DNA of 64,000 bases, taken from Eledone cirrhosa. Its lineage: Eukaryota. Position numbers and translations under genes: made by a program. This document shows positions 11,191 to 21,237 of the stretch, one piece after another (position 1 is the stretch's first letter; each line of letters opens with the position of its first letter). Under the pieces are notes generated by a model. It was not told where the DNA came from. It ran no database searches and saw only the letters and a list, made by a program, of their open reading frames with translations. Where the stretch lies: assembly GCA_964016885.1 (NCBI GenBank), contig CAXHJY010000998.1, positions 1-64,000 on the forward strand, written 5' to 3'.

Positions 11191-11362
11191 AATATATTAA
11201 TAAATGGAAACTATATTTATAAAACCATATTTATTTTATTATACATATTTCAAGGGCAACCAAGGCAAATTATGGTGCGCTTTCATCAGATAAAATACAG
11301 ATTTGTTTTATAAATATTGACATACCCGGAAAAAAGACAACCTTAACGGTTGGAGCTTCCTA
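11191..11362 (-). mobile_element. Family D element
   Basis: Homologous to 20995-21170; (TA)n on both sides. Confidence 0.7.
11233..11296 (-). ncRNA. Type I hammerhead (family D, diverged copy)
   Basis: Minus strand: ATTTTAT-CTGATGA-AAGcGCACCA..TGGtTGCcCTT-GAA-ATAtgTAT-A-ATAAAAT; compensatory stem II changes relative to the 21-kb copy. Confidence 0.85.
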
Positions 11363-14300
11363 TATATATATATATATATATATATATATATATATATATA
11401 TATATATATATATATGTAAATATATAAGAACATATCGTTTTAAGTTCATTTTGGATAGTATATATAGATAGTATATATATATATATATATATATATATAT
11501 ATATATATATTATATATATATATATATATATATAAAAATATATATATATGCTACGTCGACTGGACCCATTGTGACCTTTGCAGAGCCCACTCTGTTGCAA
11601 ACATTAATGCAAATCAATGGTTGAAGGCCACCTTCCTCCATCTCACCAGTCCAGGAGTCTCTGAGAAATACAGACATTACCCTTTCCTCTCAGATTACAA
11701 GTGGTCTTATTGTTATATTGTGTAGGTACAATAACCCAACAGTAATGCACACATAACTGGAATTGGAAATACAAATGCACACACACTTCCACTCACACAC
11801 ACTACCACTCACGCACACTTCCACTCACACACACTACCACTCACACACACTTCCACTCACACACACTTCCACTCACACGCACAAATGCAAACACATTCAC
11901 ACATATACACGCATATCTGTATATATATAGAGAGAGAGAGAGACATATATATCATATATATATATATATATCATATATATATATATATATAAATGTATAT
12001 ATATGTGTGTATGTATAAATATATATATATATATATATATATATATATATATATATATATATATATATATATATAGCGAGAGAGAGAGAGAGAGAGATAG
12101 ATATATGTGTGTATATACATATATATATATATATATATATATATATATATATATATATATATATATATATATATATATATATATATATATATATATATAT
12201 ATATATATATATATTTATATATATATATATATATATATATATATATATAGAGAGAGAGAGAGAGAGAGATATGTGTGTGTATATATATATATATATATAT
12301 AATATATATATATATATACGTGTGTATGCATGTACATGCTCAAACATTAATCAATCAACATTTCTGTTAGGTCACCATTAAAGCTGTCTTCTGCTGTCTT
12401 CGTCTTCGAAACCAACAATATAACCCCCTTCCCTCTCACTTCTCTCTACCTCACATTATATAGAGTAGCTTTCAAGGACAATGGGTTGTGGGGTGTCATG
12501 TTAGTCGCAATATTTCGTGTGTCTGTGAATGTGTGTTTGTTTGTCTGGGTGTGCGGGTGTATTTGTGAATGTGTCTGTGTGCTTGTGTGTGAGTGAGTGT
12601 ATCTGTGTATCACTACCTCAGGAATTAGATGACGGGGGAAAGCCATAAATCAATCATTAATTCCACAATGAAATGTTCACAATGTATATATATACATATA
12701 TATGTATGTGTGTGTGTGTGCATGTGTCAACATATCAACATATATATATATATATATATATATATATATATATATATATATATATATGCATATGCATATT
12801 CACACACACACACATATATATATATGCAAATATATATATATATATATATATATATATATATATATATATATATATGCATATGCATATTCACACACACACA
12901 CATATATATATGCATATATATATATATATATATATATATATATATATATATATATATATATATATATATATATATATATATATATATATATATATATATA
13001 CGTGTGTGTATTTGTGTGCGTGAGAGACTGCGTGTGTAACTAACAGCTAAAATAATTGCGATGTTGATAAAAAAAGAACTATTGTACATGACATGGTCAA
13101 TGTGTGTCCACAACACTAAACATTGTCCACAGTGAACTGACTGCCCTACATTTCCATAAAATATTCCCCATTAAATTTACATGGATATCACATTTACCCG
13201 TATGTCTGTATTTATTGATACAGTAGAAAACTGTCTTATACAGCTGCATAAGATTAAAGTAGGTTCTATATCAGATTAATCCACAGTAATATGTAGTCAT
13301 ATAAAGAGATTTAAATGTTTAAATTTAATATGAATTTAAATGATATTTGAGCCAACGATAGCTATATAATTTTGTGCCGTCGCAGCGTTTAAAACGCTAC
13401 CAACCAATTTAAGTCGTGTTAAACCCTCAAATCATGTCCTTCTATAATATGGCAGAGTAGAATTGGAAAATGTCGTCATGCATTCGTCTCAAATTAGAAT
13501 GGCAGTAATATGTTTTATTATAGGTTTACTAGGTCAGGGTTGCATTTAGGTTAAGCTGTATCAATAACAACGATTGTTAGAACAACACAATAACTAACAG
13601 AACTACAATAATATAATATAACACAAACTTCAAACTTCTACAACAGCAACGACATCAATACAAACGATTGCAATAACACCGATAACAGTAGCTACAGTAA
13701 TATCAAGAGCTACAATGACAACTGCAATACCAACAACAACTGCGAAAACAACAGCTACAATAACAACAGCTACAATAACAACAGCTACAATAACAACACC
13801 TACAATAACAACTACAACAACTATTACAACATCAGCTACAGTAACAACATCAAAAGACAACTATAACAACACCAGCTGTAATGACAACAGCTACTAATAC
13901 CAACAGCTACTAATACCAACAGCTACAACAACTACAAAACAACAACTACAAAAACAACAACTACATTACCAACTACATCTACAACAATAGGAACACTAAT
14001 AACAACAACAAAATCTACAATAACAACTGAAACAAATACAATAGCAACAACAAAAACTACAACATCTACTGCTGAAGTGAATGGGACTTTAATCCTATCA
14101 TGTCACAAATTTTCCGTTGATAGAAGCAAGTTTTGAACTCAGAATGCAGCGAGTCCAGTATTATGACTGATGCCTATTTGCTTCTACCAATTCAGCCCCT
14201 CTCAACTTGTATGTAGTTTAACGGTAGCTCTGCCCTTCCGTCAAACCCGAAACAATGGGATTTGAACTGAGAATGCAGAGTGTCAGAACAACAAAAATAA

Positions 14301-14987
14301 CAACAGCATTAAAAACATTAGCAGCAATAAAAATAACTTTTATATACACTATTAAAATGATAATGAGGAAATGGGTGATGCATTTTTTCTTCGTTTGTTT
14401 GTTAATTTTTTTCTGTAAATAACAAAGAAACTTTGTGAACCCCAAATATAAAATACAATGTTAATATTTCAATACAACACCCTGTAACCATACCAACAAC
14501 TTCTATGATTGCTACTAACAATAAATAGATAAATATATAAACGTGATGTCCTGCCCTAGCCACAGTCTAATGATTGAACCCAGATAAATAATAATAAAAA
14601 AATTACAAAAATAGGAGGGTAAATCCAAAAGGTAAAAACCGAATTAGACTAGGGTATGTCATTAATATTTGTTGTCGTTGTCGTTGTTGTTGTTGTTGTT
14701 GGTGTCTTGTTGTTATGGCTGACCTGTTACTACTGTATACGGCAAATGACCCCCAACAACTGGAAAAAAAAACCCTCATCAGATATTGCCAAGCAAATTA
14801 GCAAGGACATTAAAATGTCATTTGGTGTCGAAATATGTGGAAATTTTTGACAATAAAACCTTACGATTTACAATTTAATGGCTAGAGAGCTGGGATAACA
14901 CAATAGATGGATGACTTTATAGATATGTATAGCTAGATGTACAAGGGGAGATAACAACAACATGAGAGGTGTGATGGTGATTAAATA

Positions 14988-15202
14988 GAGGAGGAGGATG
15001 AGGAGGAGCAGGAGGAGGAGGAGCAGGAGGAGGAGAAGAAGAAGAAGAAGAAGAAGAAGAAGAAGAAGAAGAAGAAGAAGAAGAAGAAGAAGAAGAAGAA
15101 GAAGAAGAAGAAGAAGAAGAAGAAGAAGAAGAAGAAGAAGAAGAAGAAGAAGTGGTAGTAGTACAGCAACAACAATAGCAACAACAACAACAACAACAAC
15201 AA
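14988..15202. repeat. (GGA)n/(GAA)n/(CAA)n triplet tract
   Basis: Directly visible. Confidence 0.95.
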
Positions 15203-15493
15203 GAAAAAAGACGAAAAAGAAGAACTGTATCAATAAATGACGAATAAGTAGAAAACATTTTACAAAGAGAGAAAATTCTCTTCTGAACTCAATGTAGTAT
15301 TTTAATGTTGCTGCTGGTGAGCTGACTTTAAGATTAAAGGCATTCCAATCACGACCATATCATCGGCAATTTTAAGTACGAATATGGCTCTCATTAATGA
15401 AGCCTTCCTGACACAGAAGACGAGATATATATGTATACATATACATATATACTACGCACACACACACACATAACTGTATATATATATATATAT

Positions 15494-15780
15494 AATAATA
15501 AACAAGAGTTTGTCTTTGAAATACGTATAACAAAATAAATAGGGATGTACAAATGAAACTGTCTCGTTTATTATTATATAAATATAAGTATATATATATA
15601 TAATCATATATATATATATATATATATATATGATTATATATATATATATACTTATATTTATATAATAATAAACAAGAGAGACAGTTTCATTTGTACATCC
15701 CTATTTTGTTATACGTATTTCAAAGACATGTGGCAGTTGTATTACAGCTACCCTGCGTGGTCTCTTCAGACAAAAATCCA
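15494..15780. mobile_element. Family J inverted pair around a TA tract
   Basis: About 15511-15600 is the reverse complement of about 15642-15728; the right arm extends through a full hammerhead. Confidence 0.65.
15704..15775 (-). ncRNA. Type I hammerhead (family J)
   Basis: Minus strand: TTTTGT-CTGAAGA-GAC..GTC-ttt-GAA-ATACGTAT-A-ACAAAA; palindromic stem III, 6-bp stem I, 3 extra nt before GAAA. Confidence 0.7.
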
Positions 15781-16290
15781 TATATATATATATATATATA
15801 TATATATATATATATATGTGTGTGTGTGTGTGTGTGTGTGTGTGTGCGTATGTATATATGTATGTATATATGTGTGTGTGTGTGTGTTTATATATATATA
15901 TATATATATATATATATACATAGTGCAAATTTAGACGGGAACAAAACAGAGAGGCAGACAAATAAAGGTTTATTAGGTTCACGCTTATTTTTCTTAGCCC
16001 CAGTCAGGTTGCTCACAACGATCCTGGAGGCTCATACTGCGTTAAGATGTCCCCCACCTCCCCTTTATTACCTCCTACTCTCACCCCACTCCCCACCTCC
16101 TCGGAATTAATTAAAAATATTTAGTAGCCAATTACATCTTCTAATAAAGTCTGCTACTTAATGAAGAGGCGTTCATCAGTTTATTGTATGTAAACTAGTC
16201 TAAACGACTAGCAGATGTTTGTAAAAGGGAAATTGACCGAAACGTGTGTATATATATATATATATATATATATATATATATATATATATT

Positions 16291-20383: not shown

Positions 20384-20448
20384 TGTATAAATAATAAAAC
20401 CATCATATAACGTAGTGTATATAATGATGCCATGTCTGAACCGTCACT

Positions 20449-20690
20449 TGGCAGTATCGGTAGAGAGTCGGAAGCCAGGCTTTCCAGCATAATTACGTCC
20501 CTTTACAGACTGAGTTCAAATCCCGCCGAGGTTCACTTTGCCTTTCATCCTTACGGGGTCGATAAAATAAAGTACCAGTAATGCACTGGATAATTGATGG
20601 CCTTGTGCCAAAAGTAGAAACAATTATTTCATAGTCCATCCTTACGGCATCGATAAAATAAAGTACCAGTAACGCACTGGGGTTGATTTA
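20449..20690 (+). mobile_element. SINE A plus partial copy
   Basis: Consensus match. Confidence 0.8.
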
Positions 20691-21034
20691 ATCACCTTTC
20701 CTCTCCCAAAATTGTAAGTCGGATATCGTTGACTACATCAATTCTATCGTATATCAGTTAGGAATATTTCTCAAGTCCCAAGTAAAGGATGAGATAAAAC
20801 GAAAATTCGATCTCAGTGCATTTTTAGAAAGAAAGCGTCTCTGAGCTTCGAGCTCTCTCCTATCTGTCTATTTTATAAATCTTTCTCACTCAATATATAT
20901 ATGCAAAAGTTTTATTTAAAATTGTTGGGATACAACAAGTAAATATTTTATAACTGATATAAAGCACTCGACAAGTTTTTGGAGTAGATATACGATATTA
21001 AATAAATGGAAACTATATTTATAAAACCATATTT

Positions 21035-21097
21035 ATTTCATTATACATATTTCAGGGATACCAAATTAAAATATGGCATGCCTTCGTCAGATAAAAT
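21035..21097 (-). ncRNA. Type I hammerhead (family D), inverted copy
   Basis: Reverse complement of 21175-21237 within a 114-bp inverted repeat. Confidence 0.85.
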
Positions 21098-21174
21098 ACA
21101 AGACAGCTTCCAAAAATAATGGTCGCTTCTAATAGGGTACGTCAAAATTATTTATAAAACAGTTTATATATTGT

Positions 21175-21237
21175 ATTTTATCTGACGAAGGCATGCCATA
21201 TTTTAATTTGGTATCCCTGAAATATGTATAATGAAAT
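21175..21237 (+). ncRNA. Type I hammerhead (family D)
   Basis: ATTTTAT-CTGACGA-AGGcATGCCA..TGGTATcCCT-GAA-ATAtgTAT-A-ATGAAAT; 7-bp stem I; AATAAA overlaps the end of stem I. Confidence 0.85.

Follow-up and report, generated by a model that had tools for sequence, protein, structure and literature searches.

The closest described relatives of the hammerhead-bearing repeats analysed here are the Hydra-clade Penelope-like elements, including Hydra-1_Obim from Octopus bimaculoides (Craig et al. 2021, PMC8557442). In the parts of that report drawn on here, these elements have a single reverse transcriptase (RT) ORF with a C-terminal GIY-YIG-type endonuclease, RWR/RWK and DKT/DKS motifs, a CxCX5C linker, CxxC and CxH motifs, (TA)n targets, and a type I hammerhead with a self-complementary helix III and a loose 10.1–11.1 pair, all of which the element from Eledone cirrhosa shares. 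Its hammerhead sequence is nevertheless unlike the one given for Hydra-1_Obim; the 26 Hydra rows of file S2 all lack the C·C mismatch that the Eledone family has inside stem II; and the Eledone unit (4.1 kb, with a 1.6-kb 3′ UTR) is longer than the < 3 kb of the clade, a length given there as a tendency and not as a definition.

The minimal and short-helix III hammerheads of metazoan Penelope-like elements (Cervera and de la Pena 2014, PMC4209133) are likewise described as residing in pseudo-LTRs, in thousands of dispersed copies and opposite-strand pairs, with a long helix II, a palindromic helix III, families 'full of covariations' and a dimer model. Unlike those hammerheads, the Eledone family has neither the conserved G10.1–C11.1 pair nor the extra nucleotide after A9 (between 9 and 10.1) of the min-HHR consensus, and its motifs number approximately 58,000, where up to 9,000 were reported; the contrast between inherited and private changes made below has no counterpart in the sections of that report covered. 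Poseidon PAc of the green anole (Frangieh et al. 2024, PMC11167929, in the sections used) similarly has a tail defined by two internal sites of RT initiation that lie downstream of the ribozyme, AT-rich targets and cDNA crossing the cut site, but its ribozyme overlaps the ORF start, whereas that of the Eledone element lies about 190 nt upstream, and the Eledone tail of about 90 nt, with both start sites abutting TATAT in the template, differs from PAc. Finally, animal non-LTR retrozymes, as far as covered in bioRxiv 10.64898/2026.07.22.740005, carry type I hammerheads related to Penelope pseudo-LTRs; they are tandem short non-coding monomers, while the Eledone family is made up of pieces of a coding element, either single or inverted. 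For hammerheads in cephalopod retrotransposons our literature search returned only PMC8557442, and for covariation of Penelope-like hammerheads across subfamilies only unrelated work, though subscription papers, Repbase/Dfam and the supplement figures of PMC4209133 may already cover the family.

The purpose of Penelope-like hammerheads is called unclear in PMC8557442, which allows that they are passengers, and the sole reconstituted Penelope element inserted without cleavage according to the relevant part of PMC11167929. For the Eledone family, we put at roughly 70% the probability that the stretches described below are dead end-fragments of a Hydra-clade Penelope-like element, and that selection on the RNA of the copying parents likely preserved the core and stem pairs of its hammerhead, probably for dimer cutting.

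Hammerhead-bearing insertions in the window

The window, a 64,000-nt stretch of contig CAXHJY010000998.1, contained one insertion at 11 kb and another at 21 kb (Table 1), each with a core of the form CUGANGA ... GAAA ... UH (H17 being A) and three helices open at stem I, as in a type I hammerhead.

Table 1. Hammerhead-related features of the window
Feature	Position	Strand	Basis
Pseudo-LTR fragment, 11-kb subfamily, 5′-truncated, without ORF, between (TA)n runs	11188..11360	-	sequence, fold
Type I hammerhead motif, 11-kb copy (core 11248-11289)	11232..11297	-	motif, fold
Parts of 11-kb motif	CUGAUGA 11289-11283; stem II 11282-11252; C·C 11279/11255; GAAA 11251-11248	-	
Self-complementary helix III octamer, 11-kb motif	11248-11241; predicted cut between 11240 and 11239	-	
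Extended stem I, 11-kb copy (distal 12-bp helix 11316-11305 with 11225-11214)	11214..11316	-	sequence, fold
Related long-stem II family (motif core 15718-15769); truncated inverted piece from ~15517, C·C at same position, helix III centre CG	15500..15780	-	motif
Inverted arm of 21-kb insertion; long end 139 nt past predicted cut, giving a 90-nt tail	20903..21101	-	
Hammerhead motif of inverted arm (core 21050-21090), same as + arm (114/114 identical)	21034..21098	-	
Direct arm of 21-kb insertion; its short end, 49 nt beyond the predicted cut, is followed by (TA)n	21102..21279	+	
Type I hammerhead motif, 21-kb copy (core 21182-21222)	21174..21238	+	motif, fold
Parts of 21-kb motif	CUGACGA 21182-21188; stem II 21189-21218; C·C 21192/21215; GAAA 21219-21222	+	
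Helix III octamer, 21-kb motif	21222-21229; predicted cut between 21230 and 21231	+	
Extended stem I, 21-kb copy (distal 12-bp helix 21149-21160 with 21245-21256)	21149..21256	+	sequence, fold

The first-pass annotation had contrasted these two copies, and the letters bear its description out: between the 21-kb and the 11-kb copy, stem II changes from AGG/CCU to AAG/CUU and its outer pairs from AU/AU to GC/GC, the C·C mismatch is present in both while the loop differs, N7 is C in the former and U in the latter, a stem I U·G pair becomes U-A, and all 12 of 12 core positions are the same. That description did not mention a bulged extra U in the 11-kb copy, which displaces the outer stem II register, nor that in both copies stem I is lengthened by a distal 12-bp helix and helix III is self-complementary. 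By itself, the pair is weak evidence for conservation of the fold. The inner stems differ at 6 of 10 positions, amounting to three whole pairs, which by hand calculation has a chance of 10/210 (about 0.05); all six differences are transitions, so that complementarity follows automatically.

Minimal motifs of 74–78 nt folded at the level of shuffled sequences (z −0.5 and −0.2), whereas motifs including the distal stem folded better (z −2.8 for each copy); for the 21-kb copy, the prediction favoured a shifted stem I register and gave the catalytic register a probability of 0.05. An Rfam search of the window returned no match at the gathering score, and at 20850-21330 none of its hammerhead models matched even with E allowed up to 10; hairpin look-alikes among the Rfam hits were rejected, as they arise from the inverted repeat. 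The Rfam hammerhead models overlook the Eledone motif, and an Rfam match is no defining biochemical feature.

Helix III is of the dimer type, short, self-complementary and unstable in one molecule: intramolecular closure is predicted to cost 2.9 kcal/mol, and the two common octamers to form weak self-duplexes (−2.2 and −3.2 kcal/mol). Its centre was UG, UA or CG in 128 of 130 haplotypes, and AUGCGCAU was present in four copies of a more distant family. Dimer cleavage (Lünse et al. 2017) is described in the review PMC6765202, as far as covered. The C·C mismatch was retained in 218 of 237 motifs; we found no earlier report of it in a hammerhead stem II, although subscription papers, Repbase/Dfam and the supplement figures of PMC4209133 may contain one.

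The parent element and its copies

Copies were counted genome-wide with sequence patterns, which gave 58,248 intact-core matches and none for the reversed-pattern control. The 5′ half of the fragment at 11 kb had 14,146 genome matches at ≤ 2 mismatches, and the motif of the 21-kb direct arm had at least 40 identical 111-nt copies elsewhere. Both arms matched the two ends of one further locus, L095, at 94–96%. This locus carries a motif at 686, ORF pieces at 916-3131, a second motif at 4777 and an inverted motif upstream, and the 4,091 nt between its motifs correspond to a unit of about 4.1 kb, beyond the usual Hydra-clade length, with an RT/endonuclease ORF and a motif-bearing pseudo-LTR at both ends. 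In L095 as in L094, interrupted RT and endonuclease ORFs lie between direct pseudo-LTRs, in keeping with the Penelope-like plan of flanking pseudo-LTRs, an inverted 5′-truncated copy and an optional tail.

The ORF encodes RWR, DKS (DKT in locus L103), a CNCRNKSKC linker, CDLC, CRH and a C-terminal endonuclease. Judged by these motifs against the published text and, by eye, against excerpts of the published alignment, the predicted product fits the Hydra clade, and the 11-kb copy, the 21-kb copy and further loci share the clade's (TA)n insertion sites. An assignment to Naiad was dropped because the endonuclease is C-terminal. Pfam gave no match for four ORF pieces of the element, and no remnant of the ORF was found within the 64-kb window. 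The best database relatives were 41–44% identical, and the endonuclease pieces of the 11-kb and 21-kb subfamilies were only 68% identical to each other, while the hammerhead core was unchanged.

Most Eledone copies are short fragments without an ORF, which would suit a ribozyme selected for its own spread, as small circles or retrozyme-like derivatives, that rides on the element without helping it. The covered part of PMC8557442 raises this possibility, and Naiad elements thrive without canonical hammerheads. However, several subfamilies have ORF-bearing units with the motif on either side, and the loci read held no array of tandem short non-coding monomers of the Eledone family such as defines a retrozyme; we therefore consider an independently spreading ribozyme very improbable, and favour selection on the RNA of the parent element.

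Covariation and inheritance of changes in the motif

The first 30 Mb of one contig supplied most of the copies compared; of 207, 37 were collapsed as identical and 170 used, and trees were built on about 130 columns. Covariation was assessed with our own re-implementation modelled on R-scape, not with R-scape itself. The four highest-ranking column pairs among 2,556 were all stem II pairs (10.6, 10.2, 10.9 and 10.5), though none was significant when all 2,556 were tested (best E 2.5). Restricted to the 21 structure pairs under four settings, E was 0.03–0.06 for pair 10.2 and 0.014–0.08 for pair 10.6, with per-column null p values of 0.008–0.017. Stem II pairs thus led the ranking, at only borderline significance. 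RNAalifold predicted no consensus pair on 130 haplotypes, and neither the pairs with double changes (8) nor the pair types (25) exceeded shuffles, 489 and 499 of 500 of which reached these values, respectively. Variation in stem I was almost exclusively wobble. Pair 10.1–11.1 is loose (A-U in 162, G·U in 36, A·C in 17 and G-C in 6 of 229 copies).

Changes inherited by subfamilies and changes private to single copies behaved differently. In inner stem II, 13.5 inherited events kept pairing and 3 broke it (16.5 in total), compared to 12.5 and 20 private events (32.5 in total; Fisher p 0.006 on rounded counts), and all three inherited breaks were located at pair 10.1. With a tree built without the stem columns, 16 inherited events kept or restored pairing and 2 broke it, against 17 and 26 private ones (p 0.0005). 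The core was examined in copies anchored on the downstream flank only, of which 97 were recovered from the 100 matches listed and 84 used, after exclusion of 12 with an incomplete motif and another whose end fell within the core. In these 84, the 12 core sites had no inherited and 11 private changes, compared to 28 inherited and 17 private changes in loop II and N7 (p 3e-4). Copies of the G12A type numbered 546, and the 100 of them listed were scattered over all subfamilies, with no separate G12A subfamily visible among them.

That inherited changes keep the pairing, often by way of G·U steps, and spare the core, while private ones mostly break the pairing and also hit the core, points to selection on the parent elements and not on dead copies such as those in the window, which are ORF-less fragments. 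The earlier suggestion that structure was conserved while subfamilies diverged finds support with many copies, whereas the two window copies were insufficient for it and the selection acted on the parents. Conservation is high in the downstream flank as well, which means that more than the ribozyme constrains the region. Separately, in contigs of four sequencing runs N7, the stems, the loop and the centre of helix III often varied, with no variant at core positions; these are not counted as support, because the run type is unrecorded and the source sample may be included.

Compensatory changes could also be mutational in origin, with template switching mending the hairpin and subfamily ancestry inflating the signal in the absence of selection on the fold. 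Such switching is documented for RNA stems (PMC8794818, in the part covered), the inverted arms indicate that it is frequent in Eledone elements, and the independent events are few and the statistics borderline. It would, however, yield perfect stems, whereas whole subfamilies carry G·U steps at pair 10.2 (G-C 25,103, G·U 4,520 and A·C 366 genome-wide), the C·C mismatch persists, and the unpaired core is fixed while the loops vary. This explanation was already disfavoured, and we give it the slightest chance of those considered; selection on the parent RNA remains our preferred reading.

The predicted cut site and the start of reverse transcription

The predicted cut site was read through in 85 of the 97 flank-anchored copies recovered and in 70 of 88 tail-anchored copies examined among 100 listed. 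In the flank-anchored set, 8 of 93 copies ended at +6 to −9 and 4 at −10 to −56, while the 5′ ends of the same 88 tail-anchored copies were scattered between +48 and −69. The clustering of 5′ truncations at the cut site hinted at by the flank-anchored set did not recur in the tail-anchored one, and was therefore rejected as a trace of cleavage. Both RT start sites lie close downstream of the predicted cut.

This arrangement might suggest that the fold owes its selection to serving the element's protein as a binding or folding platform, or to guiding the choice of the RT start site, with cleavage incidental. In addition to the read-through in most genomic copies and the start sites just downstream of the motif, the anole element speaks for a platform: in the in vitro work covered from PMC11167929, ribozyme mutants of PAc inserted normally, no RNA ends were seen at the cut, and uncut RNA was the main insertion template. 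On the other hand, G12A keeps the fold and the active-site structure while cutting about a million-fold slower (PMC2553840, part covered), yet the 100 G12A copies listed out of 546 do not form a distinct subfamily, and N7 changes freely where the rest of the core stays fixed, as in the catalytic consensus. A platform role with incidental cleavage thus appears improbable to us, and selection for dimer cutting in the parent RNA is retained.

On that reading, two motifs in one tandem transcript would pair via their self-complementary helix III and cut, perhaps aided by the element's protein, releasing unit-length RNA that may be re-ligated, or used before the cut. From start points 49 or about 139 nt downstream, reverse transcription would then read through the cut site, giving rise to the inverted, tailed insertions in (TA)n. 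Judging from the genomic copies, hammerhead cutting likely helps the element to spread, and cleavage would have mattered for propagation, as the first-pass annotation had suggested. A bolder version holds that this lineage offers genome-scale evidence that catalysis itself, beyond the fold, is required for Penelope-like propagation in vivo, against the in vitro result, and that it represents a new hammerhead architecture: stem II, 3 bp long, would end in an obligatory C·C mismatch, and docking of this mismatch on the bulged stem I or on the element's protein would turn on both dimer cleavage and the re-ligation that yields a circular template; this we regard as rather unlikely.

Conclusions

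The Eledone family reveals no new kind of system; it is a new family of a known one, and its evidence is useful on the open question of hammerhead purpose. Tens of thousands of copies make it possible to separate changes that survived copying from those that arose after insertion, and the finding that the core tolerates only the latter argues for a real role of the hammerhead in the element's life cycle.

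Hammerhead motifs in the window

Hammerhead-type cores were located by motif search, while an Rfam search left the motif unrecognised in the window. All differences noted in the first-pass annotation for the 21-kb copy relative to the 11-kb copy are present in the sequence. In these two copies alone, ten positions hold six transitions that make up three whole pairs (probability approximately 0.05), and the comparison is by itself only suggestive of covariation. The minimal motif folded on par with shuffled sequences; including the distal 12-bp stem I helix, overlooked in the first pass, gave better folding than shuffles (z -2.8).

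Hammerhead-type cores found in the window by motif search
Feature	Position	Strand
Core of the 21-kb copy	21182-21222	+
Twin identical to the 21-kb copy	21050-21090	-
Core of the 11-kb copy	11248-11289	-
More distant core	15718-15769	-

A related hammerhead family is present at 15500-15780 as one full motif and an inverted truncated piece; its stem II is much longer, its C·C lies at the shared position, and its helix III is centred on CG. At 20988-21284, two arms make up a perfect 114-bp inverted repeat, the read-through RNA of which would form a long duplex hiding the ribozyme. A different short dispersed repeat, a putative cephalopod SINE, directly follows the 21-kb insertion (21372-21500).

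Covariation and inherited changes in stem II

Across the 3.0 Gb genome, the intact-core motif gave 58,248 matches (control 0) and the 11-kb type 14,146 (≤ 2 mismatches); the 21-kb type recurs in at least 40 identical copies. Covariation was assessed on 130 distinct haplotypes out of 207 copies, selected for intactness of the core and of stem I, with no filter on stem II. Paired cells amounted to 93.4%, and 188 cells held double changes; shuffles gave 76 and slid controls no more than 34. The numbers of pairs with double changes and of pair types showed no excess over shuffles, and RNAalifold returned no consensus structure for this alignment. Our own tree-aware test, modelled on R-scape, ranked the stem II pairs 10.6, 10.2, 10.9 and 10.5 as the best four of 2,556 column pairs. 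None was significant against all 2,556 (best E 2.5); against the 21 structure pairs, E was 0.020, 0.044, 0.096 and 0.115, respectively. With changed weights, one arm per locus, or stem columns omitted from the tree, all four stayed in the top ten, and E of 10.2 and 10.6 ranged from 0.014 to 0.08. The pairs singled out in the first-pass annotation are thus among the best supported, but with significance that is only borderline.

Since copies decay neutrally after insertion, private changes provide a built-in control for inherited ones (common to at least three loci). In the five inner stem II pairs, inherited changes kept pairing in 13.5 events and broke it in 3, all at pair 10.1, whereas private changes kept it in 12.5 and broke it in 20 (Fisher p 0.006); the private keep rate, 38%, is near the 33% expected of random changes with transition bias. 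Changes proceed via wobble intermediates, from A-U to G·U and on to G-C; genome-wide, pair 10.2 is G-C in 25,103, G·U in 4,520 and A·C in 366 cases. Of the copies with C at the partner position 11.2, 1.4% are A·C, the same as the per-site rate of private decay in the core (14/1,020), and A·C copies among the matches listed are scattered over subfamilies. Template-switch repair (PMC8794818) could also generate compensatory stem changes, but the strand-specific tolerance of G·U and the retained C·C speak against it. Selection on the hammerhead fold while subfamilies diverged is supported by the genome-wide data, though not by the two window copies from which it had been proposed.

Catalytic core, C·C mismatch and helix III

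Among 84 copies chosen solely by their downstream flank, the 12 core sites carried 0 inherited and 11 private changes, against 28 and 17 in loop II plus N7 (p 3e-4). The G12A change retains the active-site structure and slows cutting about a million-fold (PMC2553840); a G12A-type motif had 546 matches, the 100 listed of which contained no G12A subfamily.

A C·C mismatch at the fourth stem II position occurs in 218 of 237 motifs, among them all 8 of the long-stem family containing the 15.7-kb copy; it showed no inherited change and 6 private ones. The helix III octamer is self-complementary in every common form, and its centre (UG, UA or CG) is dimer-pairable in 128 of the 130 haplotypes and unpairable within one molecule. 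CG and CA centres together gave 1,084 matches; by hand count, CG made up 78 of the 100 listed. This helix matches the dimer design for Penelope hammerheads given in PMC4209133 and PMC6765202. Our literature search did not find this hammerhead family, its C·C mismatch or the inherited/private contrast, which supplements or repeat databases may contain.

Parent element and insertions

Neither window copy has an ORF; both are 5'-truncated ends, of which the 11-kb copy is solo and the 21-kb copy forms an inverted pair. L095, a parent-type unit elsewhere in the genome, runs from a motif through an interrupted RT/endonuclease ORF and a 1.6-kb 3' UTR to another motif 4,091 nt beyond the first; an inverted truncated copy precedes the unit. 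The protein motifs (RWR, DKS/DKT, CxCX5C, CxxC, CxH) and insertion of copies into (TA)n are features given for the Hydra clade, the published alignment of which agrees by eye with the Eledone protein; the octopus member described there has a different hammerhead (PMC8557442). Endonuclease pieces tied to the two window types share 68% identity, and the 3' UTRs that go with them are for the most part unalignable; judged by sequence, the subfamilies are well separated.

The inverted pair ends 49 and 139 nt beyond the predicted cut, a 'tail' pattern also seen in an anole element and attributed there to two internal RT start sites (PMC11167929). Both insertion ends (L095:820-930; window 21279 and 20903) directly precede TATAT in the element's own sequence, which suggests that a short stretch pairs with the nicked (TA)n target; in the anole element, by contrast, the reported start is non-homologous.

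Further loci show additional arrangements. At L001, L010, L012, L014 and L025, many copies start at a common TATCCAG that lies some 70 nt before the core and is preceded by a pyrimidine tract and CTAAC; this site may be a hotspot of truncation or the splice acceptor of an intron in the pseudo-LTR. The ORF-bearing unit L097:631-5032 has end ribozymes from two different subfamilies, pointing to nesting or inter-subfamily recombination. A second, divergent Hydra-like family lies inside or beside the hammerhead family (L091:1338-3480, L101:4720-6932), and L100:2033-5882 holds another RT/endonuclease ORF (834 aa open) in an inverted pair nested between two family motifs. A further (TA)n-targeting repeat, which has a long hairpin and frequently adjoins the family, lies upstream of the motif at L011, L014 and L050.

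Proposed role of cleavage

A truncation peak at the predicted cut failed to replicate and was dropped. Most likely, a tandem transcript would bring two motifs together, which would pair via helix III and then cut, possibly with protein assistance as in the anole element; the circular unit RNA proposed in PMC4209133 would fit as template. cDNA starts downstream of the cut, yet 85/97 and 70/88 copies in two sets run through it, so that the template must be uncut or re-ligated. It is also possible that the fold serves as a platform or that the ribozyme is a passenger, since the prediction for the 21-kb copy favours a shifted stem I register and cleavage was not needed in the in-vitro assay of the anole element (PMC11167929). 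Cleavage is likely, if unproven, to be needed by the element, as first proposed for its propagation, within a system that is already known, a hammerhead in a Penelope-like element.
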